64,000 nucleotides of DNA, taken from NCBI GenBank assembly GCA_046045415.1, contig JBJOLT010000032.1, forward strand, positions 4,578 to 68,577. Reading direction: 5' to 3'. Below are positions 1 to 17,797 of this stretch, in pieces. Origin of the DNA: Chloroflexota bacterium (GTDB lineage: Bacteria > Chloroflexota > Limnocylindria > Limnocylindrales > CSP1-4). Every line of letters begins with the position of its first letter. Position 1 is the first letter of the stretch. The notes beneath the pieces were generated by a model, which was given only the letters and a program-made list of their open reading frames with translations, made no database searches and was not told the DNA's origin. The translations under genes were made by a program, and so were the position numbers.

Positions 1-1183
1 CGGCCAGCTCGCCCTCCGGTCCGCCCAGGAGGACCTCGCCGCCGTCTCCGCGAGCGGGATCGATCTCGTCCGCGACGACCCGGCCGAGGCGGAGCGCCTC
101 CTCATCGACGCCTACGAGCGGCTCGCCGAGGCGGAGGCGGCCGGGATCCCGGTCGCGACGACGGAGCCGCTCCGGGCGAGCGCGATCGCCTCGCTCGACC
201 GGCTCTACCGGATGATCGACGTCGTCCCCACCGTCGCCTTCTCGTTCGCGAACCTCGAGGGGGTGGACCTCGCCGCGCTCGTCCGCGGCCCGGACGGCGT
301 CCCCTACGTCATCGACGCCGGGACGGAGGCGGTCTACCGGATCGACCTGACGGCCCGCGAGGCGATCCCGGTGATCCGCGCCGGGACGGCGGCGGGCGGG
401 ACGACGGTCGCGTCGCCGCGGCTCCTCGCGGTCGGCGGCCCCGATCTCCTCCTCCTCGACGCGAGGAACGTCCTCTGGCGGTGGCGGCCCGCCGACAAGA
501 AGGGGAAGGGGACGCTGATCCGCGTCCGCGTCACCGGGTCGGCCCAGTGGGGGCCCGACGTCCCGGCGATCGGCACCTTCCTCCGGAATGCGGAGGCCGG
601 CCTCTACAACCTCTACGTCGTCGACCCGTCGGAGCGACAGATCGAGCGCTACTCGCCGGCCGCCGACGGCTCCGGCTACCCGGCGGCGCCGAGCGGGTAC
701 CTCCAGACGCCGCAGGACCTCGGCGGCGTCGTGCAGCTCTTCATCGACGGGGATCTCTTCCTCGTCGACGGGGGACGGATCCTCCGCTTCGTCTCCGGGA
801 CGTCGCGCGACTGGGATCCCGTCGCCCCGCCCGACACCATCCTCCGTCCGGCCCCGTACTACGCGGCGATGGCCGCCTCGCAGGGGGTCCGCTCCGGCAG
901 GCTCTACGCCTGGGACCGGCTGAACGCCCGGATCGTCGCGCTCGAGAAGGGGAGCGCGCGGTACGTCGAGCAGTACCGTCTCGCCGGCGGCTCGCCCGAC
1001 TGGCGCGACGTCCGCGGGATGGTCGTCGACGCCCCGGCCGACGGGCCGGCGAGGCTCTGGTGGATCGACGGGAGCCGGCTCATGTCCGCCCTCCTCGCCC
1101 CTGCCGCCGGGGCCGCGAGCTCGGGCGACGGGACCGGCGGTACGCCGGCGGCGACGGAGGGGACGTCCGCCACGTCGCCCTAG
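1..1183 (+). CDS. hypothetical protein, 5'-truncated by window edge (listed ATG at 212 is internal; frame is open from nt 2)
   Basis: Reading frame 2 is open from the first base to TAG 1181-1183 with strong GC3 bias; recurring strand-like motifs VYRIDL / LYNLYVVD / LYAWD / LWWID suggest a repeat (beta-propeller-like) fold; no family recognised. Confidence 0.5.
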   Translation, partial: GQLALRSAQEDLAAVSASGIDLVRDDPAEAERLLIDAYERLAEAEAAGIPVATTEPLRASAIASLDRLYRMIDVVPTVAFSFANLEGVDLAALVRGPDGVPYVIDAGTEAVYRIDLTAREAIPVIRAGTAAGGTTVASPRLLAVGGPDLLLLDARNVLWRWRPADKKGKGTLIRVRVTGSAQWGPDVPAIGTFLRNAEAGLYNLYVVDPSERQIERYSPAADGSGYPAAPSGYLQTPQDLGGVVQLFIDGDLFLVDGGRILRFVSGTSRDWDPVAPPDTILRPAPYYAAMAASQGVRSGRLYAWDRLNARIVALEKGSARYVEQYRLAGGSPDWRDVRGMVVDAPADGPARLWWIDGSRLMSALLAPAAGAASSGDGTGGTPAATEGTSATSP

Positions 1184-1192
1184 GCGGCAGCG

Positions 1193-1864
1193 GTGGATAA
1201 TCGGGCCGTGGGCGACGAGCGCGAGGTCGGACTGGTCGAGATGGTGGTCGAGAGCGTCCGCGTCCAGACGAGCTCGAGCCAGCACGTCGTGATCCTCAAG
1301 CAGGTGGGCCGGGAGCGCTACCTCCCGATCTGGATCGGGCCGTGGGAGGCGCAGGCGATCGCCATGCGGCTCCAGGGGATGAGCCCGGAGCGGCCGCTCA
1401 CCCACGACACCTTCTCGACGACGCTCGATGCGCTCGGGGTCGAGATCCGCCGGGTCGTCATCGCCGATCTCGCCGACGAGACCTTCCACGCCCGGATCCA
1501 CCTGACGAGCGGCGATCGCGAGATCGAGATCGACTCCCGGCCCTCCGATGCGCTCGCGCTCGCGGTCCGCGGCGGCGTGCGGATCTTCGCCGCACCGAGG
1601 GTCCTCGCGCGCGCCGGGGTCGTCCCCGAGGCCGACGACGACGACGGGTCGCCCGCGCGGGAGCGGGCCGCCGGCCGGGCGAAGGCGACGCTCTCCGGCG
1701 AGGCGCTCGAGCGGACCGGCGAGCGGGTACCCGACGAGGAGCTCGACCTCTTCCGCGACTTCGTGAACTCGCTCGAGGTGGAGGGGGAGCGTCGCGAGGG
1801 GCCCACCGAACCCGGCGGGAAGGACGCCGCCGGCGGCGGCGGGACGGGCCCCGAGCCCGCCTAG
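1193..1864 (+). CDS. bifunctional nuclease (BFN/DUF151-like) family protein
   Basis: N-terminal core 'QHVVILKQVGRERYLPIWIGPWEAQAIAMRL...DTFSTTLDALGVEIRRVVI...FHARIHLTSGDREIEIDSRPSDALALAV' matches the conserved BFN-domain pattern as I remember it; acidic low-complexity tail. Confidence 0.65.
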   Translation: MDNRAVGDEREVGLVEMVVESVRVQTSSSQHVVILKQVGRERYLPIWIGPWEAQAIAMRLQGMSPERPLTHDTFSTTLDALGVEIRRVVIADLADETFHARIHLTSGDREIEIDSRPSDALALAVRGGVRIFAAPRVLARAGVVPEADDDDGSPARERAAGRAKATLSGEALERTGERVPDEELDLFRDFVNSLEVEGERREGPTEPGGKDAAGGGGTGPEPA

Positions 1865-2706
1865 GCCCCCCGCCCGGAGCCGGGCGCCTCGGTCACCATC
1901 GGCCGGCCGCGGCCGAGCGTCGCGGCCCGGTCGCGCCAGAGCCCGATCCGCAGCCGCCAGAAGTCGCGGACGGCGCGGCGGATCACCGACAGCTTCGCGC
2001 CCGTCGGCGAGCCCGCGGTGCGCGGATGGTGCGGGACGCCGACCTCGACGATCCGGCAGCCGCGCGCGCGGAGCTTGATGAGGAGCTCGGCCGAGAAGAA
2101 GGCCCCGTCCGACTCGACCCGGACCCCCGTGAGCGCATCCCGGCGGAAGACCTTGCACGCGCAGTCGACGTCCGTCGTCCGGAGGCCGAACCAGACGCGG
2201 TTCGCGAGCTTGTAGAGCCGCGCGTAGAGGAGCCGGAGCGGCGGGTCCGCCCGACGGATCCGGTACCCGACGACGACATCCGGCGCGTCCCCGGCGGCGA
2301 GCCGCTCGAGGAGGCGACCGAGGTCCGCGACGCGGAACTGGCGGTCCCCGTCCGTGAAGGCGATCAGCTCGTGGCGCGCCGAGAGGAAGCCGGTCCGGAC
2401 GGCGCCGCCGTAGCCGAGGTTCGTCCCCGTATGGATCGCGCGGACCTCGGGATGGGCGGCGGCGAGCCGGTCGGCGATCGCCGGGGTCGCGTCGCGGGAG
2501 CCGTCGTCGACGATGACGATCTCGAACTCGTCCGCGAGCGGCGGGAGCGCGACGAGCGCCTCGGCGACGAGCGCCTCGAGGTTCGCCTCCTCGTCGTGCG
2601 CGGGGAAGAAGTAGCTGAGCCTGGGGACGCGGGCCGCCGGCGCCGGCACGGCCTCGCTCGGTCGGGGAGATGTCACGCGGCGGACCCTAGCACGCGCGAC
2701 GCCCAC
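1861..2706 (-). CDS. GT2 glycosyltransferase, polyprenol-phosphate mannose synthase-like (Ppm1/DPM1 type); start uncertain (M1, or GTG near 2628)
   Basis: Classical GT-A/GT2 motifs 'FEIVIVDDGSRD', 'NLGYGGAVRTG', 'FTDGD' (DxD), 'VGYRIRR'; no membrane domain, i.e. catalytic-only Ppm type. Confidence 0.75.
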   Translation of the reverse strand: MGVARARVRRVTSPRPSEAVPAPAARVPRLSYFFPAHDEEANLEALVAEALVALPPLADEFEIVIVDDGSRDATPAIADRLAAAHPEVRAIHTGTNLGYGGAVRTGFLSARHELIAFTDGDRQFRVADLGRLLERLAAGDAPDVVVGYRIRRADPPLRLLYARLYKLANRVWFGLRTTDVDCACKVFRRDALTGVRVESDGAFFSAELLIKLRARGCRIVEVGVPHHPRTAGSPTGAKLSVIRRAVRDFWRLRIGLWRDRAATLGRGRPMVTEAPGSGRGA

Positions 2707-2727
2707 GGGTGGGCCGCCGGATCCCGG

Positions 2728-4104
2728 TCACCAGCCGAGGACCATCCCCCAGGCCACCCCCCACGCCTGGATCGCGATCGAGAGCCCGACGAGGAGCGCG
2801 GCGACGACGAGGCCGCGGCGACCCCACCTCGTCCGGAGCCGCTCGATCCCGAGCGCGACGAGGACGAGGGCGAACGGCGCGAAGTCGTTGCTGAAGCGGT
2901 ACCCGAACTGGACCCACCCCTGACTGAAGTGCGCGAGGTTGACGATCGCGATCGCGACGACGGCCGCGACGGCGCCGAGGACGAGCCGTGGGCTCCCGCC
3001 GATCCTGATCGCCGGGAGGGCGAGGAGCCACGCCGGGCTCGTGAGGATCAGGCTCATCCCGATCGGGTCCGGGACGATCCACGGGCACTCGGGGGAGAAG
3101 AACGCGCGCTCGAGGCCGGGCGCGCAGTCGGGGAGGATCCGGGGGAGCGAGCCGAACATCACCCCGAGGTTCTGCGGGATGTAGCGGAGGTCCTCGATCG
3201 CCCAGTCGGGCCGGTAGCCGAGCTCCGGGTACCCGAACGCCTCGCGCAGGTACTGGTAGTCGTAGGCCGGGTGGAAGAGCTCGCCGGTCGAGACGAGGTT
3301 GTAGGCGAAGAGCCCGCCGATCGGGATCGCCGCGCCGATCCCCGCCGAGAGCGACCGTCCGATGAACGAGCCGCCCCCGCCGACGAGCGCGAGGAACGGA
3401 GCGCCGAGGATCACCGGGAGACGGGCCGTCGCCGCGATCCCGAGGAGGAGCCCGGCGACGAACTGCCCGCGGTGGAGCGGCCCCCGGCCGGGCGGGCCGG
3501 CCTCCGCTGCGAGCGCCCGTTCGATGGCGAGGAGGACGAGTGCCACGGCGATCGTATGGGCGAGGAACCAGGTCGTCCCGATCGCCGACGTGTACCAGAG
3601 GACGGTCCCGAGGCCGAGGAAGACGGTCGCGAGGAGCCGCGACCGGCGGTCGATCGGCAGCCACCCGAGCATCCGGAGCGCGACGCCGACCGCGAGCGCC
3701 CCGGCGATCGTCGCGGCCCATTGGCCGTTCACCGCCTCGCCGAGGAGCGCGACGAACGGGAGGAGCACGAGCGCCGGGAGCGGCGGGAAGGGGATGAGCG
3801 CCTCGCCGGTGGGCCGGCCCGCCGCGTCGTAGAGCGGCATCGCGTCCTGGTAGTAGCCGTTCCCCGGGGCGTCGGGCGAGGACGGGTCGGGAAGGGTGAT
3901 CGCCGCCTTCCCCTCGAGGAACGCGGCCGCCTGGCGGACGAAGTGGTCGTACGGGCTGATCCGCGCCGGGTTGCTGATCGCGTAGACCGCGAGGATCGCG
4001 AGCACGATCGCGAGCCCGGCGGCGACCGGCAGGCGCCGCTCGAGGGCGCCCGGCCCGGGGTCGCCTGCGTCGTCGGTCGGCTCGGGTCGCGCCGCTATAC
4101 TCAT
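2728..4104 (-). CDS. polytopic membrane protein, GT-C-fold (ArnT/PMT_2-like) glycosyltransferase candidate
   Basis: 458 aa with >10 hydrophobic helices, periplasmic loops rich in aromatic/Pro residues (GNGYYQDAMPLYD..., FHPAYDYQYLREAFGYPELGYRPDW); sits between a PPM-synthase-like GT2 and a GT-C fusion; family assignment is by resemblance only. Confidence 0.5.
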   Translation of the reverse strand: MSIAARPEPTDDAGDPGPGALERRLPVAAGLAIVLAILAVYAISNPARISPYDHFVRQAAAFLEGKAAITLPDPSSPDAPGNGYYQDAMPLYDAAGRPTGEALIPFPPLPALVLLPFVALLGEAVNGQWAATIAGALAVGVALRMLGWLPIDRRSRLLATVFLGLGTVLWYTSAIGTTWFLAHTIAVALVLLAIERALAAEAGPPGRGPLHRGQFVAGLLLGIAATARLPVILGAPFLALVGGGGSFIGRSLSAGIGAAIPIGGLFAYNLVSTGELFHPAYDYQYLREAFGYPELGYRPDWAIEDLRYIPQNLGVMFGSLPRILPDCAPGLERAFFSPECPWIVPDPIGMSLILTSPAWLLALPAIRIGGSPRLVLGAVAAVVAIAIVNLAHFSQGWVQFGYRFSNDFAPFALVLVALGIERLRTRWGRRGLVVAALLVGLSIAIQAWGVAWGMVLGW

Positions 4105-4139
4105 CGTCTCCTCAGCGCTCGTTCAGGAGGCCGGTACGC

Positions 4140-7100
4140 GTGTCAGGCCCGGCTGGGGGTGGCGTCGCACCGGGCGAAGCGGCCCCGGACCGGTCGGCCC
4201 CCCGGGACGATCTCGTCGGGATCCTGCCGCTCCTCGCCCTCGGGCTCGCCCTCCGGCTCATCATCCTAGCGGTCGCGCCCGGCTCGGGCTTCGCCGTCGA
4301 CCTCGACGCGTTCCGCTTCTGGGCGGCCGACCTCGCGCGGAACGGACCGTTCGGCTTCTACGAGCGGGGCTTCTTCGCCGACTACACGCCCGGCTACCTC
4401 TATCTCCTCTGGCTCGTCGGCGTCATCGGCGGCCTCCTCCGCGGGCCGGAGGTCGCGGCGCTCGGCGACCTCATCAAGCTCCCGGCGATCCTCGCCGACG
4501 TCGCCGTCGCGTGGCTGATCCGGTCGCTCGCGATCGAGCTCGGCGCGACGAACCGGCGCGCGCTCGCCGCCGCCGCGCTCTTCCTCCTCTTCCCCGTCTC
4601 GTGGTTCGACAGCGCCCTCTGGGGCCAGGTCGACTCGGTCGGCGTCGTCTTCCTGCTGCTCGGGGTCCGGTCGATCTGGCGCGGGAACGCGCCGGCCGCC
4701 GCCGTCTGGGCGACGCTCGCGGCGGTCGTGAAGCCGCAGCTCGGGATCCTCGTCCCGATCCTTGCCGCGTGGGTGATCGGCCGCCTCCTCGCCGAGCGCC
4801 GGACGGCCGCGCTCGCGGTCGCGACCGCGAGGGACGGCTCCGCCCCGGCGCCCGTCGTCTCGAACCCGATCCGGGCGATCGGCTTCCCGATCCTCGCCGC
4901 CGCCGCGACCGCGACCGCCGCGAGCGCCCCGTTCGGTCTCACGCTCCTCGGGCTCTTCGGCCAGGTCGCATCCGCCGCCGCCGGCTACCCGTATGCATCG
5001 GTGAACGCGTACAACCCGTGGGCGCTCGCGACCGTCGACGGCCGGGGTGTCGTCGCCGACGGCACGTGGGTCCGCGATGCCCCCGGCCTCGCGCTCGAGC
5101 CGTACCTCGCGTTCGGCCCCGTCCCGGCCGTGGTCGTCGGCACGGTCCTCCTCCTCATCGCGATCGTGGCGATCGGCGCCGTCGTCGTCCGCCGACCCAC
5201 CCGCGGCACGGTGATCGCCGCGCTCGCCGTCCTCGCGATCGCCTTCTTCGTCGTCCCGACCCGGGTCCACGAGCGCTATCTCTTCCCGTTCATCCCGCTC
5301 GCCCTCATCCTCGCGGCGCGCTCCGACCGCTGGCGCCTCCCGTGGCTCGCCGGCGCGACGACGACGACCCTCGGGATGTACGTCGTCCTCACGACCCTCT
5401 ACCCGGGGAACCCCGGGATCTCGGACTGGCTCGGGATCGGGCCGGCGATCCGGTCGGCGGCGGGCGTGACGACCCTCGCCCTCATCCACGTCGCGCTGCT
5501 CGCCCGAGGGGTGACGCTCCTCCGCCACCGCGCGATCGACGAGCTGGAGGCCACCCCGCCGGAACCGGCGGCCGCCGCCGCGACCGTGGCCGTGGCGGTG
5601 GCCGCGGCCGACGTGACGCCGGCGCCCGTCCGCGCCGCCCCCGCGCCGCCACCGGCCGTCCCGGAGCCGGTCGGAGCCGCCGCGCCGTCCTGGCTCGAGC
5701 GGCCCGACCCGGCGGATCCCGGCCTCCTCGCCGAGGTCCGCCGCCGCCTCCTCGCGAGGCCGCTCCGCGCCGACCGGAGCGCGGCGCTCGTCGGGGAGCC
5801 GGGCGGGCGACTCGACCGCCTCGACCTGTGGATCGTCGTCGTCCTCGTCGTCCTCCTGCTCGCCGGGCGCGCCCACCGGCTCGAGCAGCCGTACCAGATG
5901 CACTTCGACGAGGTCTACCACGCCCGTACCGCGACCGAGTTCCTCCAGCACTGGCGCTACGGCGAGCCCCACCCCATCTACGAGTTCACGCACCCGCACC
6001 TCGCGAAGTACGCGATGGCCGCCGGGCTCGTCATGTTCGGGGGCGACCGGGTGGTCGCGACGAGCTCGCTCGGGGCGCCGGTGGCCGCGGCCGCGATCGA
6101 GGGCCGCTGGGAGGACCCGCGGCTCCCCGCCGCCCGCGCCGGCGACCGGCTCTACCTCGCGACGGGGAGCGACGTCCGCGTCATCGATCTCGCCCGCCGC
6201 TCGGAGGTCGTCCGGCTCCCGATCCCGGGAGCCCGCTCGCTCGCCGTCTCGTCGCTCCGGCACGAGCTCTACGTCGGGACGGACTCGGGGACGATCCTCG
6301 CGCTCGCGACCGCCGCCCTCGACGACGTCCGCCTCGGGGTCCCGCCGCCGGGGGCCGCGGCGATCCGGACCGTCGCCGAGATCGGCGCCCCGGTCGCGCG
6401 GCTCCATGCCGCCGGCGACGGCGCGACGATCCTCGCGGTCGCCGGCGACGAGGTCGTGGCGCTCGCGAGCGACGGCGGGGCGCCACGCGGGCGGCTCGCC
6501 CTCCCGGGGGCGACCGGGTTCGCCGATGCCGGGACGGCCGAGCTCCTCGTCGCTCGCCCGGCCGAGGTCCCCGACCCGGTCGCCGCCGCCCGGGTCCTCA
6601 CCACGCTCCTCGGCGGCTCGGACGGCAGCTACGTCGACCGTCTCGGCACCGGCGCGGGGAGCGTCACGATCGCCCCCGCCCCTCGCGGCGACCTCCGCGG
6701 CGAGCTCGACGCCGCCCTCGGGGACGGCCGTCTCGCCGGGTTCGAGCTCATCACCGTCGGGCGCGTGGCGGTCGGCGCGACGGACGGGATCGCGCTCGTC
6801 GCGACCGCCGACCCGGTGCTGCTGGAGCGGATCGGGACGACGGAGCCGGTGACGGGCCTCGCCGCGACGACGAACCTCGACGCCACCTACCTCTACGCGG
6901 CGACCGGCGAGTCGCTCACCGTCGCCGTCCTCCCGTCGTCGAGCGACACCGAGGGGCTCGCGCGGGTCTCGACGACGGTGCGGATGCCGGGTGCGGTCCG
7001 GGACGTCGCCTGGAACCCGGCGACGCAGATGATCCACGCCCTCGGCCGCGCCCCCGCCGGGTCCGACGGCGAGACCGTCTACGTCGTGGAACCGCACGGG

Positions 7101-9353
7101 AACGCCGTCTTCGCCGACGCGCGGCTCCCCTTCGCCCCGGCGGCGCTCGTCGTCGACGCCGCTCCCCGCTTCCCGAACGACGACCGCCAGGAGCTCCTCG
7201 CCTTCGCCGCGGACGGGAGCGGCGCGTCGGTCGCGGTCGGCGCCCATGCGTTCGCGTGGCGGCTCCCCGGCGTCCTCGCCGGGCTCCTCGGCTCGCTGGC
7301 CCTCTACCTCCTCGCGAGGATCCTCTTCCGGAGGCGTTCCGTCGCCGTGTTCGCCGCCGTCCTCGCCGGCCTCGACGGGATGCTCTTCGTCCAGTCGCGG
7401 ATCGGGATGAACGACGCGTACGTCGGGGCGCTGATCCTCGCCGCGATCGCGGCGTTCGCCGGTCTCTGGACGGGACGCTGGCGATCGCCCGCCGCGTTCT
7501 GGGTCGTCATGCCGGTCGTCGGGATCCTCCTCGGCCTGGCGCTCGCCGCGAAGTGGGTCGCCCTCTACGCGATCGCGGGGCTCGGCATCCTCGTCCTCGC
7601 CCGGTCGGCGCTCGGACGCGTGATCCTCGTCGGCGGGCTCCTCGCCGCCACCGCGGTCCTCGGCCTCGCGGCGATCTCCGTGCCCGCCGGCGGCACGAGC
7701 GGCGGCAACCTCTCGTTCGTCCTCGCGATGATCGCCGTGTCGCTCGTCGCCGTCGCGATCTCCGTCCTCCGGCCGGTCGCCTGGACCCTCGAGGAGCTCC
7801 GGTTCGCCGTCGCCGCCCCGCTCGCGACCGGTGTCGCGATCCTCCTCATCGGGATCCCGCTCGGGGTCGTCGGGCCCGGGCCCTGCGCCGATCCGGCGGC
7901 ACCGTGTCCCCAGCAACTCCTCCTCGAAGGGGCGTTCGGCCTCGTCGTCCTCTCCGGGCTCGCGCTCGGGGCGGCGCGCCTCGCCGCCGGCGTCGGATGG
8001 GGTCCGCTCGCCGACCCGGGCCGCGCGGCGCTCCGCGCCCTCCCTCCGGCCTCGCCGGCCCCGGAGGGCTGGCTCAGGCTCGGGTCCGGCCGCGGCCTCC
8101 CGGCCGTCTGGCTCGTCGTCTCGCTCCTCGCGATCCCCGTCGCGGTCTACGTCGCCTCGTACCTCCCGTGGGTCGCGCTCGGGAACCGGCTCGTCGAGTC
8201 GTGGCCGCCGGGGAACGCCGGTCAGACGCTCGCCGACCTGACCGCCTCGATGTACCGGTATCACGACGACCTCAGGGCGGCGCACGCCGCCTCGTCCCCC
8301 TGGTGGGCGTGGCCCTTCGACCTGAAGCCGGTCTGGTTCTATCAGGGGGGCTTCGAGAGCGCCACGGCCGGGGCGATCTACGACGCCGGCAACCTCGTCG
8401 TCTGGTGGCTCGCGATCCCCGCCCTCGGGTTCGCCGCCTGGGCCGCCTATCGGCGCCGGAGCCACGCCCTCGCGCTCGTCGTCGTCGCGTTCCTCGCGCT
8501 CTGGCTCCCGTGGGCGCGGATCGACCGGGCGACGTTCCAGTACCACTACTACACGGCGCTCCCCTTCGCGATCCTCGCGCTCGCGTACCTCGCCGCGGAG
8601 CTCTGGCACGGCCCACCCCGCGGCGTCTGGCTCCTCGCGCGGGTCTCGGCGGGGCTCGCGATCGTCGGCCCGCTCCTCCTCTGGCTCCTCCGCCTGCCGC
8701 TCTGCGCGCTCATCCGGGTCGAGGGCGCCAACCCCGGCTCGGAGGCGTGCGCCCTCCTTCCGCCGGGCGAGATCCTCGTCACCGCGCGGACCGCCGGCCT
8801 CCTCCTCGTCGCCCTCGTCGGGGGGCTCATGCTCGTCCGCGGGATCCTCTCCCTCGGGCGGCCCGGCGGACGCAGCACGGCCGTCGTCATCGGCGCGGTC
8901 GTCACGTCCGCGGGTCTCGTCGCCGCCGGCCGGCTCCTCGACGAGACCCCGCTCCTCCGGATCACCGCCTTCCCGCCCGAGGCGATCGCGCTCGTCGCCA
9001 TCGTCCCGGTCGGCTCCCTCGCCTGGCACGTCGCGACGGCGAGCGACCCGCGCCGCTTCGTCGCCGGGATCCTCGTCGCGGCCGCGGGCTGGTTCGTCCT
9101 CTGGTACCCGAACCTCAGCGGCCTCCCCCTCCCGAGCGCGCTCTTCAACGCGTACCAGGGGCTCCTGCCGACGTACCTCTACCCGTTCCAGTTCCCGGTG
9201 AACCTCGACCCCCCGGGCGAGGGGCCGCCGCTCGCGAGTCTCGAGTTCGCGATCCTCGCGCTCGCGATCGCCGGCACGGCGGTCGCCGTCGCGTGGAGCG
9301 CGTCGTCGTGGCGGCTGCCCGGGCGCGGCGGGGAGGCGGGCCCCCCGGCCTAG
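4140..9353 (+). CDS. 1737-aa polytopic fusion: N-terminal GT-C glycosyltransferase module + PMT-type (GT39-like) protein-O-mannosyltransferase module with a large repeat insertion
   Basis: Single open frame with coding GC3 bias throughout. aa 1-470 multi-TM with 'GPFGFYERGFFADYTPGYLYLLW'. An Ala/Pro linker follows, then a TM helix and the PMT loop-1 signature 'HFDEVYHARTATEFLQHWRYGEPHPIYEFTHPHLAKY' (nt ~5899). aa ~640-1050 hold blade-like repeats (LYLATGSDVRVIDL, LYVGTDSGTILAL, ILAVAGDEVVAL, LYAATGESLTVAVL, VYVVEPHGNAVFAD). The PMT TM core follows ('LFVQSRIGMNDAYV', 'YRYHDDLRAAHAASSPWWAWPFDLKPVWFYQ'). Confidence 0.7.
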   Translation: MSGPAGGGVAPGEAAPDRSAPRDDLVGILPLLALGLALRLIILAVAPGSGFAVDLDAFRFWAADLARNGPFGFYERGFFADYTPGYLYLLWLVGVIGGLLRGPEVAALGDLIKLPAILADVAVAWLIRSLAIELGATNRRALAAAALFLLFPVSWFDSALWGQVDSVGVVFLLLGVRSIWRGNAPAAAVWATLAAVVKPQLGILVPILAAWVIGRLLAERRTAALAVATARDGSAPAPVVSNPIRAIGFPILAAAATATAASAPFGLTLLGLFGQVASAAAGYPYASVNAYNPWALATVDGRGVVADGTWVRDAPGLALEPYLAFGPVPAVVVGTVLLLIAIVAIGAVVVRRPTRGTVIAALAVLAIAFFVVPTRVHERYLFPFIPLALILAARSDRWRLPWLAGATTTTLGMYVVLTTLYPGNPGISDWLGIGPAIRSAAGVTTLALIHVALLARGVTLLRHRAIDELEATPPEPAAAAATVAVAVAAADVTPAPVRAAPAPPPAVPEPVGAAAPSWLERPDPADPGLLAEVRRRLLARPLRADRSAALVGEPGGRLDRLDLWIVVVLVVLLLAGRAHRLEQPYQMHFDEVYHARTATEFLQHWRYGEPHPIYEFTHPHLAKYAMAAGLVMFGGDRVVATSSLGAPVAAAAIEGRWEDPRLPAARAGDRLYLATGSDVRVIDLARRSEVVRLPIPGARSLAVSSLRHELYVGTDSGTILALATAALDDVRLGVPPPGAAAIRTVAEIGAPVARLHAAGDGATILAVAGDEVVALASDGGAPRGRLALPGATGFADAGTAELLVARPAEVPDPVAAARVLTTLLGGSDGSYVDRLGTGAGSVTIAPAPRGDLRGELDAALGDGRLAGFELITVGRVAVGATDGIALVATADPVLLERIGTTEPVTGLAATTNLDATYLYAATGESLTVAVLPSSSDTEGLARVSTTVRMPGAVRDVAWNPATQMIHALGRAPAGSDGETVYVVEPHGNAVFADARLPFAPAALVVDAAPRFPNDDRQELLAFAADGSGASVAVGAHAFAWRLPGVLAGLLGSLALYLLARILFRRRSVAVFAAVLAGLDGMLFVQSRIGMNDAYVGALILAAIAAFAGLWTGRWRSPAAFWVVMPVVGILLGLALAAKWVALYAIAGLGILVLARSALGRVILVGGLLAATAVLGLAAISVPAGGTSGGNLSFVLAMIAVSLVAVAISVLRPVAWTLEELRFAVAAPLATGVAILLIGIPLGVVGPGPCADPAAPCPQQLLLEGAFGLVVLSGLALGAARLAAGVGWGPLADPGRAALRALPPASPAPEGWLRLGSGRGLPAVWLVVSLLAIPVAVYVASYLPWVALGNRLVESWPPGNAGQTLADLTASMYRYHDDLRAAHAASSPWWAWPFDLKPVWFYQGGFESATAGAIYDAGNLVVWWLAIPALGFAAWAAYRRRSHALALVVVAFLALWLPWARIDRATFQYHYYTALPFAILALAYLAAELWHGPPRGVWLLARVSAGLAIVGPLLLWLLRLPLCALIRVEGANPGSEACALLPPGEILVTARTAGLLLVALVGGLMLVRGILSLGRPGGRSTAVVIGAVVTSAGLVAAGRLLDETPLLRITAFPPEAIALVAIVPVGSLAWHVATASDPRRFVAGILVAAAGWFVLWYPNLSGLPLPSALFNAYQGLLPTYLYPFQFPVNLDPPGEGPPLASLEFAILALAIAGTAVAVAWSASSWRLPGRGGEAGPPA

Positions 9354-10546
9354 TCGCGGCCCCCCGGCCCCCGGTGCTCGCGGGGCGGCGCGGGCGGGAT
9401 CGGCGCCGTGTGATGCTCGGGCATCGCCCCGCTCGCCGCGAGCCGGCGGATCACGAACCCGTAGTAGGCGTCGACCCGCTCGGTCACCTGCTCCCAGCTG
9501 AACGCCTCGGCACGGGCGAGCCCGCTCGCACCCATCCGCTCCCGGAGCGCTGGGTCGCCGAGGAGGCTCATCGTCGCCGCCGCGATCGCCTTCGCGTCGC
9601 CCGGCGGTACGAGGAGCCCCTGCTCGCCCCGCTTCACGACCCCCTTGTAGCCGTGGATGTCCGACGCGACGATCGGCGTCCCCGCCGCCATCGCCTCGAG
9701 GAGGACGATCCCGAACGACTCGCGTCCCGTGGCGGGCGAGACGTAGACGTCGGCGGTCTTGAAGAGCGCCGCCTTCTCGCGGTCGCTCACCCGGCCGAGG
9801 AACTCGACGCCGCCGAGTCGCCGGGTCGCGACGTAGCGCCGCGCCTCGCGCTCCTGGGGTCCCGAGCCGACGACGAGCAGCCGGCAGTCGCAGTCCGCCT
9901 TCCGCATGATCCGGTAGGCCTTCAGGAGGTGGAGCAGCCCCTTCCGCGGCTCGTGACGCCCGACGAAGAGGACGTTCCGCCGTCCGTCCTGCCAGCGCGC
10001 GACCGGGACCGCGTCCCGATAGCGAGCGACGTCGACCCCGTTCGGGATCACCCGGTAGTCGCCCGGGAAGAAGCGATCGATGAAGTGGCGCGCGGCGGCG
10101 GAGACGGCGATCCGCCCGTGGAGCCGCCGCCCGTAGCCGCCGAGCACGCGGCTCCCGAACTCGTACGACGGCGAGAACCCGGCGTACGCGTGGAAGGTGG
10201 CGACGTTCACGCTCCTCGACTCCCTGAGGAGCACGAGCGAGAGGAAGGGGACGAAGGGCTCGTGGAAGTGAAGGAGGTCGAAGCGCTCTTCGTCGAGCAT
10301 CCGCCGGACCTGTGCGACGTAGCGGGGCGAGAAGGTGATCGTCCCCATCGAGCCGTTCGCCGGGACGCTGAACCCCTTCCCGAGCCGGATGACGTCGCCG
10401 TCCGTCGAGCGCTGGAACCCGTGGCTCGCGGAGATGATCCGGACATCGTGGCCGCGGAGGCGGAGATTCCGGTAGAGGTGCTCGACGTGCTCGTTCACCC
10501 CGCCGGGCGTCGGGTAGATGTACGGCGTGACGAGCCCGATCTTCAT
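9350..10546 (-). CDS. pimA: GT4 glycosyltransferase, PimA-like phosphatidylinositol alpha-mannosyltransferase (start at internal MKIGLV; the 580-aa ORF is over-extended)
   Basis: 'MKIGLVTPYIYPTPGGVNEHVEHL', 'VGRHEPRKG', 'VSPATGRESFGIVLLEAMAAGTPIVASDIHGY' are GT4/PimA-family motifs; PIM-type operon context; ATG overlaps the stop of the upstream PHP gene. Confidence 0.75.
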   Translation of the reverse strand: MKIGLVTPYIYPTPGGVNEHVEHLYRNLRLRGHDVRIISASHGFQRSTDGDVIRLGKGFSVPANGSMGTITFSPRYVAQVRRMLDEERFDLLHFHEPFVPFLSLVLLRESRSVNVATFHAYAGFSPSYEFGSRVLGGYGRRLHGRIAVSAAARHFIDRFFPGDYRVIPNGVDVARYRDAVPVARWQDGRRNVLFVGRHEPRKGLLHLLKAYRIMRKADCDCRLLVVGSGPQEREARRYVATRRLGGVEFLGRVSDREKAALFKTADVYVSPATGRESFGIVLLEAMAAGTPIVASDIHGYKGVVKRGEQGLLVPPGDAKAIAAATMSLLGDPALRERMGASGLARAEAFSWEQVTERVDAYYGFVIRRLAASGAMPEHHTAPIPPAPPREHRGPGGRD

Positions 10547-11376
10547 CGTGCGCCCCCGCCGGCCCCGCCACCGTCGCGGGTGAGGGCCTCGAGGTCGAGG
10601 CGGGCGGGTCGCCGCCGTCCCCCGGGGTAGCCGAGGTCGCGCCCCGTGCCGTCCCGGCGGATCGCGCCGCGGATCCCGTCGCGCGCGTCCCGGCCGTACT
10701 TGCGGAGCTGGCGGCCGAAGGTCCCGATCTGGCCCGCCCCATGGAAGGCGCCGTGCGCGTGGGTACGCCGCTCGAGGATCGCCCGGCGAAGCTCGTCGGC
10801 GCTCCTGCCCGGGAAGGTCGTCCAGCAGCTCCCGATCGCCTCGAGCGTGTGCGCGTCGCTGTTCCCGATCGCCGCGAGCCCGTGCTCCGCGGCGAACCGC
10901 ACGACCCTGCCGTGGAGCGGCCGCCCGAGCGCCGTCGGGTTGAAGGTCTCCAGTCCGTCCGGGTGGACGCGAGGATCCGGATCCCGGAGGAGTCGCTCCA
11001 GCGCCGGGGCCTGAGCGCAGAGCGGGTACGGGACGAGGGGGTGGGCCGGGATCGCGAGGCCACCCTGATCGTGGACCGCGGCGATCGTCCATCGGAGGGA
11101 GCGGAGCGACGGGATCCGCTCCTCGACGAAGAGCGCGAGGAGGTGGCCCCCGAGGGTCGTCACCTCCTCCCCGACGACCACCTCGACCCGGTGGCGCCGC
11201 TCCCTCGCGATCTCGCGCGCGGCGAGCGCCGCATCGATCCGCTCGTGGTCGGTGATCGCGACGACGTCGAGGACCCCCGCCCGCTCGATGTGCTCGAGGA
11301 TCTCGACGACCCCGGCGGTCCCGTCGGAAGCGAGCGTGTGGATGTGGAGGTCGGCGCGGCCGAGCCGGTCGGTCAT
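10543..11376 (-). CDS. PHP-domain metal-dependent phosphoesterase
   Basis: 'ADLHIHTLASDGT...VAITDHE' His-rich PHP signature; start at MTDRLGRADLHIHT overlapping (ATGA) the stop of the acyltransferase gene. Confidence 0.7.
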   Translation of the reverse strand: MTDRLGRADLHIHTLASDGTAGVVEILEHIERAGVLDVVAITDHERIDAALAAREIARERRHRVEVVVGEEVTTLGGHLLALFVEERIPSLRSLRWTIAAVHDQGGLAIPAHPLVPYPLCAQAPALERLLRDPDPRVHPDGLETFNPTALGRPLHGRVVRFAAEHGLAAIGNSDAHTLEAIGSCWTTFPGRSADELRRAILERRTHAHGAFHGAGQIGTFGRQLRKYGRDARDGIRGAIRRDGTGRDLGYPGGRRRPARLDLEALTRDGGGAGGGAR

Positions 11377-12317
11377 CGGTCCGGCACCGCGAGGTCGCGC
11401 CAGATCGGGAAGAAGAGCGACCACCACTGCTCCGGCGCCGTCGCGATCAGCCGCTCGTAGCCGGCCGCCTGGGCGGCAAGGAAGGCGACGACCCGCTCCC
11501 GCAGCTTCCCGGCCGCCGGCGGCTCGACGCGGATCAGCTCGCCCTCGTAGCGGCCGCCCCCGGTCCGGCGGGCGCCCATGACGTACGCGGGCGCCCCGCT
11601 CTCGATCGCGGCGAGCGCCCCGCCGATCGGGAGCGGCGCCGGATGGCCGAAGAACGGGACCTCGACACCGCCGCCGGTCACGTCGCGGTCGGCGACGAGG
11701 CCGGCGATCTCGCCGCGTCCGAGCGCCTCCTCCAGTTCCCGCTTCGCCAGCGCGATCGGGACGATCCGGAGGCCGACGAAGCCGCGCGTCCGCTCGAACC
11801 AGCGCTGGAGGACCGGGTCGGCGAGCGTCTCCATCGGGCAGACGGCCGGACGGCCGAGCCGGCTCGAGAGGTAGATCGCGGGGATCTCGAGCCCGCCGTA
11901 GTGGATCCCCACGAGGATGAGCGCGCCGCCCCGCTCGAACGGCGAGTCACCGGGCTCCGTCGCGAACTCGACGAGCCGCCTCACCCGCTCCGGGGTGAAC
12001 GACGGGGCGCGGAGGACTTCGAGGTAGTAGCGGGCATGGTGCCGGGACGCGGAGCGAAGGAGCGCCTCGAGCGCACGCGGGTCGCTCGCCGCGCGCCGTG
12101 CCGCGTCCGTGCCGCGACCGGTCGCCGCGAGCGACTCGCAGACGCGGCGGAGGTTCCGACGCCCCTGCTCCGCCCGGCGCGGGTCGGCCCGGAGCCAGAG
12201 GTCCCCCGCGAGCTCGGCGAGCGCGACGAGCGGGCGCTCGGGGAGGCGGCAGGCGAGCGCCGACGCCGCGTCGATCGCGAGGCCGCGGAGGCGCTGGCCG
12301 GGTGTGAGGCGGGTCAT
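11373..12317 (-). CDS. lipid acyltransferase of the HtrB/LpxL-LPLAT family (PatA-like PIM acyltransferase), copy 2
   Basis: 314 aa from MTRLTPGQ; conserved 'LILVGIHYGGLEIP', 'PFFGHPAPLPIGGALAAIESGAPAYV', 'EQWWSLFFPIW' blocks typical of lauroyl/myristoyl-type acyltransferases; ATGA overlap with upstream gene. Confidence 0.7.
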   Translation of the reverse strand: MTRLTPGQRLRGLAIDAASALACRLPERPLVALAELAGDLWLRADPRRAEQGRRNLRRVCESLAATGRGTDAARRAASDPRALEALLRSASRHHARYYLEVLRAPSFTPERVRRLVEFATEPGDSPFERGGALILVGIHYGGLEIPAIYLSSRLGRPAVCPMETLADPVLQRWFERTRGFVGLRIVPIALAKRELEEALGRGEIAGLVADRDVTGGGVEVPFFGHPAPLPIGGALAAIESGAPAYVMGARRTGGGRYEGELIRVEPPAAGKLRERVVAFLAAQAAGYERLIATAPEQWWSLFFPIWRDLAVPDR

Positions 12318-13342
12318 CGACCGGGCGCCTGCCCGGCGAGGGTGGCGTCGGCCTCCGGAGCGGCCCGCTCGCCGCTCCCCGGCGGGCGGGCGAGCGCCGC
12401 CTCGAGCCGGTCGCGCTCCGCCGGGTCGCTCGGCCAGATCGGCTTGAAGCTGTACCACTGCTCGGGGGCGGCGGCGATCGTCCGCTCGAGCGCGTCGGCG
12501 ATCCGCTGGGTCGCCGACGCGAGATCGGCCGGGTCGGTCGAGGCGCACTCGATCGGCTCGTCGTGGGTGACGTAGAAGGTGCCGTCCGGGTGCCGGCGCG
12601 AGGTGAACGGCAGGATCGTCGCGCCGGTCTTCGCCGCGAGGTAGGCGGGGCCGGCCGGCAGCATCGTCGGTGCGCCGAAGATCCGGACCGGGATCCCGTC
12701 CGGCTTGTAGCCCCAGTCGACGAGGAGGCCGAGGATCTCGCCGCGCTTCAGGACGGCGAAGACGTCGCGGAGGTTCCGCCACGGGATCAGCTCCACTCCC
12801 CAGGAGCGGCGGACCGCCCGCAGGTGCTCGAACAGCTCGGGGAAGGTCGAGTCGTCGGCGACGACGGAGATCGGCCACCCGTGGCGCGCGATCCCGGCGG
12901 CGATCGCCTCGTTGTTCCCGACGTGCTGGCCGACGAGGACCAGGCCCTTCGAGCGCTTCCGGATCGCCTCGAACGTCTCGAGCCCGGCGAGATCCACCTG
13001 CGCGGCGGCGCGCTCGGGCGGCATGCTCGTCTGGCGGAGGAGCTCGACGATGTAGCGCGCATAGTTCCGGTAGGCCGCGAGCGCGAGCCGCCGGACCCGC
13101 GGGTCGTCCACCGTCGTCCCGAGGACGTGGGCGAAGTTCGCATCGACGAAGCGCCGCTTCTCCGGCCAGAGGAGATAGCCGGCCCTCGTGACGACCCCGC
13201 CGACGGTCCATGCCGGCCGCGGCGGGATCCTCGCGGCGAGCCACTCCGCCGTCCGGTAGAGCCGGAGCGCGGCCCGCTCCACGACCCGCGGTGCGCCGCG
13301 GCGCCGCCGATGCGGCGCCTCGCGCCCGCCGCTCGCCGTCAC
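12314..13342 (-). CDS. lipid acyltransferase of the HtrB/LpxL-LPLAT family (PatA-like), copy 1; deduced GTG start overlapping pgsA-like stop
   Basis: Same family blocks as copy 2 ('LVLVGQHVGNNEAIAAG', 'IFGAPTMLPAGPAYLAAKTGATILPF', 'EQWYSFKPIW'); the upstream part of the 497-aa ORF is Arg-rich shadow sequence. Confidence 0.6.
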   Translation of the reverse strand: MTASGGREAPHRRRRGAPRVVERAALRLYRTAEWLAARIPPRPAWTVGGVVTRAGYLLWPEKRRFVDANFAHVLGTTVDDPRVRRLALAAYRNYARYIVELLRQTSMPPERAAAQVDLAGLETFEAIRKRSKGLVLVGQHVGNNEAIAAGIARHGWPISVVADDSTFPELFEHLRAVRRSWGVELIPWRNLRDVFAVLKRGEILGLLVDWGYKPDGIPVRIFGAPTMLPAGPAYLAAKTGATILPFTSRRHPDGTFYVTHDEPIECASTDPADLASATQRIADALERTIAAAPEQWYSFKPIWPSDPAERDRLEAALARPPGSGERAAPEADATLAGQAPGR

Positions 13343-13971
13343 CGGCCCGGTGCCCCGAGCGAGGCGATCGTCCGCTGCACGGCGGTGATCGTCGCGAGGA
13401 GGGCGATCGCCCCGAGCGAGACCTCGAGCGCCGGGGCCGGATCGTCGGCGAGCCCGGCCGCGACGAGGCCCGCGAAGAGGATCGCGATCCTGATCTCCCG
13501 CGGGGCGAGGCCGACGTTCGCGATGCCGCTCCCGGTGGAGAGGCCGAGCCCCTCGGCCCGGGCGCGCGTGTAGCTGACCATGAAGGCGGCCGCCATCGCC
13601 GCGCCCGCGAGGAGGACGGCACGGTCCTCGCCGGCGGCGAGCGCCCCCGCGAGGATCCCGACGAAGACGAGCGCCTCGCCGGCCCGGTCGCTCACCGAGT
13701 CGAGGAACGCGCCCGCGGGCCCCGCCTTCCCGGTCGCACGGGCGAGCGCACCGTCGAAGAGGTCGAAGACGGCCCCGCCGAGGACGAGGCACCCGGCCGC
13801 GACCCACGCGCCGGATGCGGCGACGACGGCGGCGACGATCGCGATCGCGAGCCCGATGACGGTCAGGGCGTTCGGCGTGAGGCCGAGCCTCCCGAGCGCG
13901 AGCGCCACCGGCGTCCCGAGCTCGCGGACGCGGGCCCGCTGCTCCGGGGTGAGGAGGCTTCCCCGGTTCAT
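13339..13971 (-). CDS. CDP-alcohol phosphatidyltransferase (phosphatidylinositol(-phosphate) synthase PgsA1-like)
   Basis: 210 aa from MNRGSLLTPEQ; hallmark 'GGAVFDLFDGALAR ... GAFLDSVSDR' (D-G-x2-A-R...G-x3-D-x3-D) with 5-6 TM helices; start overlaps (ATGA) the ArsR gene stop. Confidence 0.75.
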   Translation of the reverse strand: MNRGSLLTPEQRARVRELGTPVALALGRLGLTPNALTVIGLAIAIVAAVVAASGAWVAAGCLVLGGAVFDLFDGALARATGKAGPAGAFLDSVSDRAGEALVFVGILAGALAAGEDRAVLLAGAAMAAAFMVSYTRARAEGLGLSTGSGIANVGLAPREIRIAILFAGLVAAGLADDPAPALEVSLGAIALLATITAVQRTIASLGAPGR

Positions 13972-14312
13972 CGCACAGCCCCGTCGGCGAGGCCGAGGAT
14001 CGCCCGTTCGCGATCGGCCATCTCCGCGAAGACCTCCGGCCGGATGCTGCAGACCGTCTCGCGGCCCGTCCGCCGCGTCGCGACGACCCCGGCGATCCGG
14101 AGCCGGCGGACGTGCCAGCTGACGAGCGGCTGCGACCGACCGACGTGGGCGATCAGCTCGGTGACCGTCGCGGGGCCGGCGGCGAGCCGTCGGAGGATCC
14201 GGAGGCGGGTCACGTCGGCGAGGGCGCGATGGAAGCGATGGAGCGTGAGGAGCGGGTCCGCGCCGTCCGTCACCGGCGAGAAGCCGGGGCGGACACCGGC
14301 GGGGGAGGTCAC
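13968..14312 (-). CDS. ArsR/SmtB-family winged-helix transcriptional regulator (no metal-site cysteines in helix alpha3)
   Basis: 'LADVTRLRILRRLAAGPATVTELIAHVGRSQPLVSWHVRRLRIAGVV' HTH pattern of ArsR family; first gene of the PIM-type operon. Confidence 0.75.
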   Translation of the reverse strand: MTSPAGVRPGFSPVTDGADPLLTLHRFHRALADVTRLRILRRLAAGPATVTELIAHVGRSQPLVSWHVRRLRIAGVVATRRTGRETVCSIRPEVFAEMADRERAILGLADGAVR

Positions 14313-17724: not shown

Positions 17725-17797
17725 CGCGGCCGCATCGTAGCAGCGCGCCCGATACCGCCCCCGTGGGGCGCCGCCACCCCCTGCTACGCTCCGCCCG

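Follow-up and report, generated by a model that had tools for sequence, protein, structure and literature searches.

A predicted phosphatidylinositol mannoside operon and its conserved C-type glycosyltransferase neighbours in Limnocylindria-type Chloroflexota

Phosphatidylinositol mannosides (PIMs) and lipomannan are considered characteristic of the Actinobacteria. Here we describe a region in a 64-kb stretch of DNA from a Chloroflexota bacterium (contig JBJOLT010000032.1; the whole stretch that was analysed is referred to as the window) that contains a six-gene operon with the enzyme families of early PIM synthesis, next to genes for a soluble family 2 glycosyltransferase (GT2) and for membrane proteins with three C-type glycosyltransferase (GT-C) modules. 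The operon very probably produces phosphatidylinositol (PI)-mannoside-type lipids, and its association with the GT-C genes is conserved in related genomes. For the region as a whole we propose, tentatively and just short of calling it probable, a conserved cell-envelope glycolipid locus, in which the operon provides an acylated PIM on the cytoplasmic side and the extracytoplasmic GT-C half would elaborate this into a PI-anchored lipoglycan.

The G+C content is ~73-77% across the region, so that open reading frames (ORFs) alone are uninformative. Genes were therefore called by a frame analysis based on the GC content at third codon positions (GC3), which yields one frame per position, and confirmed by family searches. 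Every gene named in the original prediction was confirmed in this way, and its gene set was right in every structural detail, including the stop codons shared with the convergent neighbour, with only the coordinates being refined. The operon lies on the minus strand and runs from 14312 to 9350. It starts with a gene for an ArsR/SmtB-type helix-turn-helix regulator (13968-14312), followed by those for a CDP-alcohol phosphatidyltransferase that is the predicted phosphatidylinositol phosphate (PIP) synthase (13339-13971; Pfam CDP-OH_P_transf), PatA-like acyltransferase 1 (12314-13342, with a GTG start that overlaps the stop of the synthase gene), PatA-like acyltransferase 2 (11373-12317), a PHP-family (TrpH-like) metal-dependent phosphoesterase (10543-11376) and a PimA-like family 4 glycosyltransferase (GT4; 9350-10546). 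All five internal junctions are 4-nt ATGA or GTGA start/stop overlaps, the sequence signature of translational coupling. At the downstream end, the sequence CTAG at 9350-9353 holds the stop codons of both the GT4 gene and the giant GT-C gene (4140-9353, plus strand) that converges on it.

The GT4 matches PimA of Mycobacterium smegmatis (4n9w/2gej) over its full length (residues 1-365) with 231 bits (E 2e-67), compared to 88 bits for the best non-PimA match and 83 bits for PimB'. It retains Y9, G15, G16, N63, H118, R196, E199, P200-R201-K202-G203, E274-S-F and E282 of PimA. When the alignment was compared with the residues listed as critical in PimA (Y9, Q18, Y62, N63, R68, H118, R196, E199, R201 and E274; PMC9202250), seven out of ten were found to be identical (Y9, N63, H118, R196, E199, R201 and E274), and Q18 is conservatively replaced by N. 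Judged from this alignment the donor site, comprising the GDP-mannose and catalytic-cleft residues, is PimA-like, and the protein is a predicted GDP-mannose:phosphatidylinositol alpha-mannosyltransferase that would transfer mannose from GDP-mannose to PI.

Both acyltransferases belong to the Lip_A_acyltrans family (137 bits for acyltransferase 1 and 75 bits for acyltransferase 2), carry an H-x4-E motif (HVGNNE and HYGGLE, respectively) and are paralogues with 32-33% mutual identity. Their top NCBIfam match is NF005919, the phosphatidylinositol mannoside acyltransferase PatA, with 147.6 and 112.6 bits. As both fall short of the equivalog cutoff of 209 bits, we class them as PatA-like and not as PatA equivalogs. 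PatA (5f2t) is also the top PDB match for both; for acyltransferase 1 it scores 73 bits, versus 27 bits for an LpxM-type enzyme. A lipid A (LpxL-type) identity was considered and rejected, because PatA is the best match in both cases and the genes are coupled to those for the PIP synthase and PimA. No lipid A genes were found in the annotated parts of the window.

For the CDP-alcohol phosphatidyltransferase, the best PDB match is PgsA1 of M. tuberculosis (6h53, 80.7 bits), followed by the PIP synthases of Renibacterium and M. kansasii, and there is a weak match to the family of BT_1523. Among the NCBIfam models, archaetidylinositol-phosphate synthase (NF040950, 127.8 bits, cutoff 180) and PIPSynth (NF045883, 114.3 bits, cutoff 170) are matched below their equivalog cutoffs. 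The regulator scores 73.7 bits against NF033788 (HTH_metalloreg; cutoff 55), its stop overlaps the ATG of the synthase gene, and an ArsR gene is also the first gene in homologous operons of other lineages. The original prediction of a PIM-type core is thus borne out by the preference of the GT4 for PimA over PimB', of both acyltransferases for PatA and of the CDP-alcohol phosphatidyltransferase for PgsA1 and other PIP synthases.

A scan of a genome collection with the PHP family yielded 491 confirmed loci. The best 80 of these, at 63-76% identity, are nearly all labelled as Candidatus Limnocylindria/Limnocylindrales or as Chloroflexota metagenome-assembled genomes (MAGs); the host is a Limnocylindria-type member of the Chloroflexota, not of the Actinobacteria, and has no closely related sequenced representative. 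An exact-sequence search with the PimA-like protein matched no contig, so that the collection does not contain the source genome. Window proteins were mapped onto the related loci by tblastn, and for some loci the called genes were also compared. The giant GT-C gene converges on the GT4 gene in all related loci with at least 2 kb of sequence beyond the latter (65 of 65), at 45-57% identity of its GT-C modules to those in the window, so that the juxtaposition is not due to chance. On the PIM side, the conserved layout consists of a gene for a major facilitator superfamily (MFS) transporter (reverse), followed by the genes for ArsR, the synthase, inositol-1-phosphate synthase (MIPS), acyltransferase 1, acyltransferase 2, PHP and GT4 (forward). 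On the GT-C side it continues with the giant GT-C (reverse), a 458-aa GT-C, a TMEM260-like GT-C and GT2 (forward), and a nuclease (reverse). The far side is variable, with some relatives lacking the gene for the 458-aa protein and others that for the TMEM260-like protein, and the giant GT-C gene is fixed.

With modest confidence, and from genomic context, we consider the PHP protein to be the PIP (PI-3-phosphate) phosphatase of the inositol-phosphate-dependent PI pathway. It is a predicted soluble protein of 277 aa without a transmembrane (TM) helix, with a match to Pfam PHP_C (55.6 bits, cutoff 21.3) and a sub-threshold match to PHP. All 20 close and 26 distant homologues keep the metal ligands H-x-H, D, H, E, H, H and D-x-H. 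With 68-95% identity across Limnocylindria it ranks with the best-conserved proteins of the operon; the closest relative, 95% identical, is encoded on a 1.2-kb contig. The Limnocylindria proteins also share a very basic C-terminal tail, QLRKYGRDARD...RRDGTGRDLGYPGGRxRPPR (window 10543-10700), which was not found in the 240-aa homologues of other lineages and may be a membrane-association or partner-binding segment.

The PHP gene also occurs with inositol-lipid genes outside the Limnocylindria. A PHP search of 1.84 billion representative proteins returned 158 cluster representatives at E<=1e-30. Metagenome contigs were scanned with an alignment of the distant members (36-48% identical to the PHP protein of the window), and the neighbouring genes were mapped for the 80 loci sampled. 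Cluster names in this distant group include Dormibacterota, Limnocylindrus and Thermodesulfobium, with little taxonomy for most groups. The module of MIPS, synthase, two acyltransferases, PHP, GT4 and ArsR genes recurs in Dormibacterota and other lineages, at GC contents of 0.29-0.72. The commonest order is ArsR-MIPS-acyltransferase-acyltransferase-PHP-GT4-synthase (GC 0.54-0.69; loci L086-L091 are Dormibacterota by their cluster names); one locus has the order synthase-MIPS-acyltransferase-GT4-acyltransferase-PHP (GC 0.29), and seven loci have a minimal ArsR-PHP-synthase arrangement (GC 0.47-0.58). Among the 50 distant loci with a length of 4 kb or more, 39 have the PHP homologue encoded beside PIP synthase, MIPS or PimA genes. 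We consider PHP a candidate PIP phosphatase because it tracks the PIP synthase through these different gene orders, down to the three-gene core.

Alternatively, the PHP protein could be a phosphoesterase for nucleotides or RNA (TrpH/RNase AM type or pAp phosphatase type), or could regulate precursor pools, with the PIP phosphatase encoded elsewhere; this explanation deserves weight, though we doubt it on balance. In mycobacteria, a Nudix hydrolase gene follows pimA in the Rv2612c-Rv2609c cluster and could serve as an analogue for such a regulator. The nearest solved relatives of the PHP protein are 9etk, a PHP phosphoesterase of unstated function, and 7ug9, a 5'-3' exoribonuclease, and its NCBIfam matches are RNase RNM and 3',5'-nucleoside bisphosphate phosphatase; all of these matches are weak and limited to the N-terminal region. 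In 11 of the 50 distant loci, moreover, no inositol-lipid gene is located nearby. This explanation is harder to reconcile with the position of the PHP gene, translationally coupled between those for an acyltransferase and PimA, with its persistence next to the PIP synthase gene in three gene orders, including the ArsR-PHP-synthase module, and with its strong conservation; in addition, no other phosphatase is encoded in any version of the operon. The sole known bacterial PIP phosphatase, from Bacteroides, belongs to the PgpA family (PMC9246714). Family searches gave no match of the PHP protein to PgpA; as a PIP phosphatase it would therefore be a non-homologous analogue of the Bacteroides enzyme. 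In the literature that was searched we found no report of a PHP-type PIP phosphatase, or of a PHP domain associated with inositol-lipid genes.

Three GT-C modules, one in the 458-aa protein (2728-4104, minus strand) and two in a 1737-aa fusion protein (4140-9353, plus strand), adjoin the PIM-type operon together with GT2 (1861-2706, minus strand). GT2 has no predicted TM helix and matches Pfam Glycos_transf_2 with 93 bits. By sequence it is of the polyprenyl-phosphate-sugar synthase class (Ppm1/DPM1/ArnC/GtrB-like), with ArnC (~50 bits), a haloarchaeal dolichyl-P-hexose transferase, PgfS, PpgS, the dolichyl-phosphate mannose synthase (DPMS) of P. furiosus (5mlz, 37.5 bits) and GtrB (32 bits) as best NCBIfam and PDB matches. 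In relatives its gene is co-directional with GT-C genes, and a function as polyprenyl-phosphate mannose (Ppm) synthase is a reasonable guess.

The 1737-aa protein is encoded by a single ORF and has ~30 predicted hydrophobic segments. A TM-rich module (aa 28-461) is followed by an Ala/Pro-rich linker (aa 462-557), one TM helix (aa 558-576), a soluble region without TM segments (aa 577-1044) and a second TM-rich module (aa 1045-1721). We rejected the possibility that this ORF is an artefact of the high GC content, as GC3 is 0.96 throughout and orthologues in relatives are 1740-1776 aa in length. This double GT-C protein represents a new architecture among C-type glycosyltransferases. In two loci on what appear to be long-read MAG contigs (L005, 12082-17176; L166, 10001-15470) the gene is broken into two or three ORFs, most likely as a result of frameshift errors, which would inflate the number of 'partial' proteins in databases. 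The start codons of the giant gene and of the divergent gene for the 458-aa protein are 35 bp apart (window 4104-4140; ~30 bp in L001), so that the promoters, unless the true starts are located further inside, would have to overlap with one another or with coding sequence.

For the N-terminal module of the fusion (N-module; aa 1-480, 4140-5579) the window sequence has no significant Pfam match, and none to GT87 (PF09594). Among 24 orthologues, 16 have weak matches to GT87, mostly below 25 bits (28.4 bits for P0122), and 16 to Alg6_Alg8; some orthologues are named GT87/DUF2029 by NCBI. Profile searches against PDB sequences gave nothing meaningful for either the N-module or the 458-aa protein, and no sequence match to PimE; structure prediction was therefore used. 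The AlphaFold2 model of the N-module, based on 44 sequences, is of high confidence, with a pLDDT of 89.6 and a pTM of 0.90. Its predicted fold is nearest to transferases that act on lipid-linked glycans, namely ALG6, PIG-M (GPI-MT-I), ALG3 and PimE, and is closer to these than to PMT or oligosaccharyltransferase (OST). The N-module has an invariant Asp54 in its first outer loop, at the place taken in PimE by the catalytic D58 (PMC12041525). The 458-aa protein has the GT-C fold, with ArnT as one of many equal structural matches. An hhalign comparison of its family with that of the N-module showed no similarity; the two are therefore not recent paralogues.

The C-terminal module of the fusion (C-module; aa 558-1737, 5811-9353) is PMT-like and contains an extracytoplasmic region of ~470 aa (5868-7271) in its loop 1, which opens with the DE motif HFDEVYH. 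Pfam gave no match for this middle region; a profile of the orthologues weakly matches YVTN/WD40-type propellers (e.g. 1l0q, E 3e-6), and the insert in this loop is probably a beta-propeller.

Starting from the family-level gene identities, the coupling of the operon, the fold classes and the conserved adjacency, we infer the substrate of the PHP protein, the donor sugar, the acceptors of the GT-C modules and any lipoglycan product as follows. The CDP-alcohol phosphatidyltransferase would form PIP from CDP-diacylglycerol and inositol-1-phosphate, the PHP phosphoesterase would remove the ring phosphate to give PI, and the PimA-like GT4 would add one mannose from GDP-mannose to yield PIM1. The two PatA-like enzymes would then attach one or two extra acyl chains, making an acylated PI-monomannoside the predicted product of the operon, under control of the ArsR-type regulator. 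GT2 would charge polyprenyl phosphate with a hexose, probably mannose. After flipping of the acyl-PIM to the outer face of the membrane, the three GT-C modules would use the donor made by GT2, most likely with the flipped acyl-PIM as acceptor. For the ALG6/PIG-M/PimE-like N-module the substrate would be a lipid-linked glycan, and the PMT-like module with its propeller might extend or branch this glycan, or transfer sugar to protein. The end product would be a PI-anchored lipoglycan that is analogous to actinobacterial lipomannan but independently built. A lipid-linked acceptor fits with the resemblance of the N-module to GPI-MT-I, ALG enzymes and PimE, and a lipomannan-like product is a plausible hypothesis; that the GT-C proteins act on the PIM anchor is possible, though somewhat doubtful.

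Several observations, set out in this paragraph and the next, weigh against the lipoglycan proposal. In the acceptor loop of the GT4, Y62 and R68 are replaced by A and T, respectively, and both residues were reported to be critical in mycobacterial PimA (PMC9202250); acceptor recognition or membrane docking may therefore differ somewhat from that of the mycobacterial enzyme. The original prediction of a complete pathway in one locus did not hold. A second, PimB'-type GT4 is encoded neither in the 64-kb window nor in the operons of relatives. Likewise, tblastn detected no MIPS gene in the whole window, whereas it is present between the PIP synthase and acyltransferase 1 genes in 58 of 58 relatives. 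As the corresponding junction in the window (13339-13342) is a clean GTGA overlap and metagenome locus L130 has the same MIPS-less operon, this form probably represents a genuine variant of a sub-lineage in which MIPS is encoded elsewhere. The nearest characterised relatives of the PHP protein are nucleotide or RNA enzymes and do not include a lipid phosphatase. Finally, the designation of GT2 as a Ppm synthase held for its class; its equivalog scores are all 50-53 bits, against cutoffs of 370-529 bits, and ArnC ranks above DPMS, so that no sugar can be assigned.

For the GT-C half, two separate systems lying side by side are a serious alternative, if an improbable one overall. In that case PI and acyl-PIM would be made by the operon as a final membrane lipid product, and GT2 and the GT-C proteins would carry out O-mannosylation of secreted or surface proteins, with polyprenyl-phosphate mannose as donor and PMT-like and TMEM260-like transferases, the adjacency being synteny inherited within the class and perhaps kept by shared regulation or use of GDP-mannose. 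The C-module carries the signature of protein O-mannosyltransferases, with PMT_4TMC (49.8 bits, cutoff 32.4) and PMT (34.1 bits, cutoff 22.7) above threshold, the DE motif kept in 57 of 58 orthologues and yeast Pmt4 as the best PDB sequence match, although its score against the NCBIfam Pmt equivalog is only 46.7 bits (cutoff 800). Of the description of three PPM-dependent GT-C modules beside the operon, the modules and their position stand, and no donor sugar can be assigned to them. Most relatives encode an additional GT-C of ~540 aa, TMEM260-like/PMT_2 (PF11028), between the 458-aa GT-C and GT2 (e.g. L001, 18802-20415), of which tblastn found no counterpart in the whole window; the window is atypical twice, lacking this gene and that for MIPS. 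A sortase gene nearby indicates that surface proteins are present. As the GT-C genes either converge on the operon or diverge from it, they are not co-transcribed with it. Furthermore, GT-C genes are missing next to the operon in Dormibacterota (L088) and in most other lineages, so that it evidently functions without them there: hidden Markov models of the four Limnocylindria GT-C families, applied to the 80 loci from other lineages, matched only in two Limnocylindria-like loci, and Pfam analysis of the flanks of L088, L094, L097, L098, L129, L149, L156 and others identified unrelated housekeeping genes.

Other observations argue for a link between the two halves of the locus. The operon encodes a single cytoplasmic mannosyltransferase, so that other enzymes would be required if the lipid is glycosylated further. 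The predicted fold of the N-module, nearer to lipid-glycan transferases than to PMT or OST, does not favour protein O-mannosylation, and the locus contains no conserved candidate gene for a Ser/Thr-rich substrate. The adjacency persists in 65 of 65 Limnocylindria loci, although the sequences have diverged by ~50% and the far side is rearranged. In addition, three unrelated loci have GT-C genes within the operon or next to it. In L117, an 810-aa PMT_2 protein is encoded within the operon, between acyltransferase and PHP (5563-7995), and a 519-aa membrane protein with weak GT87/PIG-U matches two genes downstream (11282-12841); a 519-aa ORF in the same downstream position in L119 (11309-12868) has no Pfam match. 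In L095 (11079-12611) and L096 (13710-15371), PMT_2 proteins are encoded on the same strand 0.6 kb and 2.7 kb downstream, respectively. Such GT-C proteins number, by a rough estimate, a few per genome; on that estimate, three independent associations in ~25 informative loci are more than would be expected by chance. The expected adjacency of PIM core and GT-C genes in related genomes is found in all 65 informative Limnocylindria loci and in L095, L096 and L117, but not in Dormibacterota and most other lineages. Of the lipomannan-like interpretation as a whole, the PIM core and the conserved adjacency stand, and the missing PimB' and MIPS, the PMT-family module and the convergent gene sets speak against it.

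A role of GT2 and the GT-C proteins in making or modifying a different envelope polymer (wall polysaccharide, surface (S)-layer glycan or lipid-linked oligosaccharide) unrelated to inositol lipids is very unlikely: the GT2 scores assign no donor sugar and the propeller-like insert weakly resembles an S-layer YVTN domain and a PBP domain, but the conserved locus has no genes for a flippase, polymerase, initiating phosphotransferase or nucleotide-sugar enzyme, and the PIM genes are the only conserved glycolipid genes nearby. ArnT-type modification of lipid A was also rejected for the GT-C proteins, as the N-module ranks ArnT below ALG6, PIG-M, ALG3 and PimE and the 458-aa protein matches it no better than many others; with this ranking, and with co-localisation in all 65 loci, neither an ArnT-like grouping nor an isolated occurrence of the gene pair is what we observed. 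The most extensive form of our proposal, i.e., that Limnocylindria, Dormibacterota and further uncultured lineages make acyl-PIMs with PHP as PIP phosphatase and that in Limnocylindria the double GT-C elongates the anchor to a lipomannan-like lipoglycan, is rather unlikely to hold in full.

The remainder of the window has a housekeeping character, with genes for CorA, a sortase, an AhpC/TSA-family redoxin, predicted NADH dehydrogenase subunits, PurH, ClpB, Lon and a permease; the locus is part of the core chromosome and not an island. In L166, a 3.68-Mb contig that represents a near-complete genome of a relative, the locus lies ~3 kb from dnaN-recF-dciA (338-3071), which suggests that it is close to the replication origin. 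Upstream of the operon, the divergent gene for an MFS transporter (14444-16024, plus strand; Pfam MFS_1, 135 bits) is found at the same place in almost every Limnocylindria locus as well as in L107 and L156, and its membership in the system is uncertain. The longest ORFs for the sortase-like protein (17041-18195, minus strand) and the redoxin (17798-18457, plus strand) overlap by ~400 bp on opposite strands, and the sortase probably starts well downstream of its first start codon. At the other end of the region, the GT2 gene is flanked by that for a bifunctional nuclease (1193-1864, plus strand), which is preceded by a 323-aa ORF without family match (212-1183; start uncertain) that has a Ser/Thr/Gly-rich tail. 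A 762-aa gene product, also without family match, is encoded at the corresponding position upstream of the nuclease gene in L166.

Two further types of neighbour were noted after the CDP-alcohol phosphatidyltransferase gene in other lineages. In L129 (10031-12451), L149 (9833-11995) and L143 (8267-10351) the gene that directly follows encodes a large protein (694-806 aa) with an NYN domain, a predicted RNase, at its C-terminus, and two of these three loci are of the minimal ArsR-PHP-synthase type. In L117 (10422-11282) and L102 (6344-7102) it is a thioredoxin-fold protein, where L119 has a 272-aa ORF (10488-11306); in the window, the AhpC/TSA-family redoxin is encoded a few genes from the operon.

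If our proposal is correct, PIM-type glycolipids extend to abundant uncultured phyla of soil and freshwater (Limnocylindria, Dormibacterota), and the make-up of their envelopes can be predicted accordingly; it would also imply an independent bacterial invention of a GPI (glycosylphosphatidylinositol)- or lipomannan-type glycolipid outside the Actinobacteria. Because the 1737-aa double GT-C is strictly linked to the operon, its acceptor is accessible to experiment. Of greatest value, and directly testable, is the candidate phosphatase: the enzyme that converts PIP to PI is stated to be unidentified in mycobacteria and other actinobacteria (PMC6506517), and the PHP gene is a concrete candidate for this step. 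Similarly, the inositol acyltransferase of mycobacteria is unidentified (PMC9490103; PMC12041525) and expected to be evolutionarily distinct from PatA (PMC9490103). In the Limnocylindria lineage, the second PatA paralogue is a candidate for a further acylation step. PI has been reported as a major polar lipid in cultivated Chloroflexota, such as Dictyobacter (PMC12453558); in the literature that was searched we found no report of PIMs or PIM genes in Chloroflexota or Limnocylindria.

Compared to the early PIM pathway of mycobacteria and corynebacteria (the pgsA1-patA-pimA cluster), the operon combines the same three enzyme families, in the same order of synthase, acyltransferase and PimA, and with the same predicted chemistry of PIP, PI, PIM1 and acyl-PIM (PMC9490103; PMC12041525). 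In contrast to the mycobacterial system, the host belongs to the Chloroflexota, there are two PatA paralogues instead of one and no PimB', and PHP and ArsR are integral parts of the operon, as is MIPS in relatives. Y62 and R68 of the acceptor loop of PimA are not conserved, and the equivalog cutoffs for PatA and the PIP synthase are not reached. The clustering logic is also that of the inositol-lipid genes of Bacteroides, which include those for MIPS (BT_1526), PIP synthase (BT_1523) and PIP phosphatase (BT_1525) (PMC9246714). There, however, the phosphatase belongs to the PgpA family and the downstream steps lead to sphingolipids, whereas here the candidate phosphatase is of the PHP/TrpH type and the downstream steps would be mannosylation and acylation.

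Unlike the enzymes of actinobacterial lipomannan synthesis, the GT-C proteins of this locus are not clear members of GT87. According to its model, the N-module shares with PimE and MptA-C (GT87) the GT-C fold and has an invariant Asp in the first outer loop, as D58 in PimE, and its model has the same structural neighbours (ALG6, PIG-U and ArnT) as the authors report for PimE (PMC12041525). Some of its orthologues reach or approach the Pfam threshold for GT87, but the N-module of the window has neither a GT87 match nor a PDB sequence match to PimE, and no GT87 enzyme is known to be fused to a second GT-C. The eukaryotic enzymes PIG-M/Gpi14, ALG6 and ALG3 transfer sugars from dolichyl phosphate onto lipid-linked glycans, in the case of PIG-M onto a PI-based lipid; they belong to another kingdom, the sequence identity with the N-module is 14-16%, and no partner subunits are evident here. 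Similar to PMT (GT39) enzymes, the C-module has the PMT and PMT_4TMC domains and the HFDEVYH DE motif, and it lacks a MIR domain, as does bacterial Pmt. It differs from these enzymes in its size of ~1180 aa, the loop-1 insert of ~400 aa that is probably a beta-propeller, the extra C-terminal TM helices and the GT-C to which it is fused.

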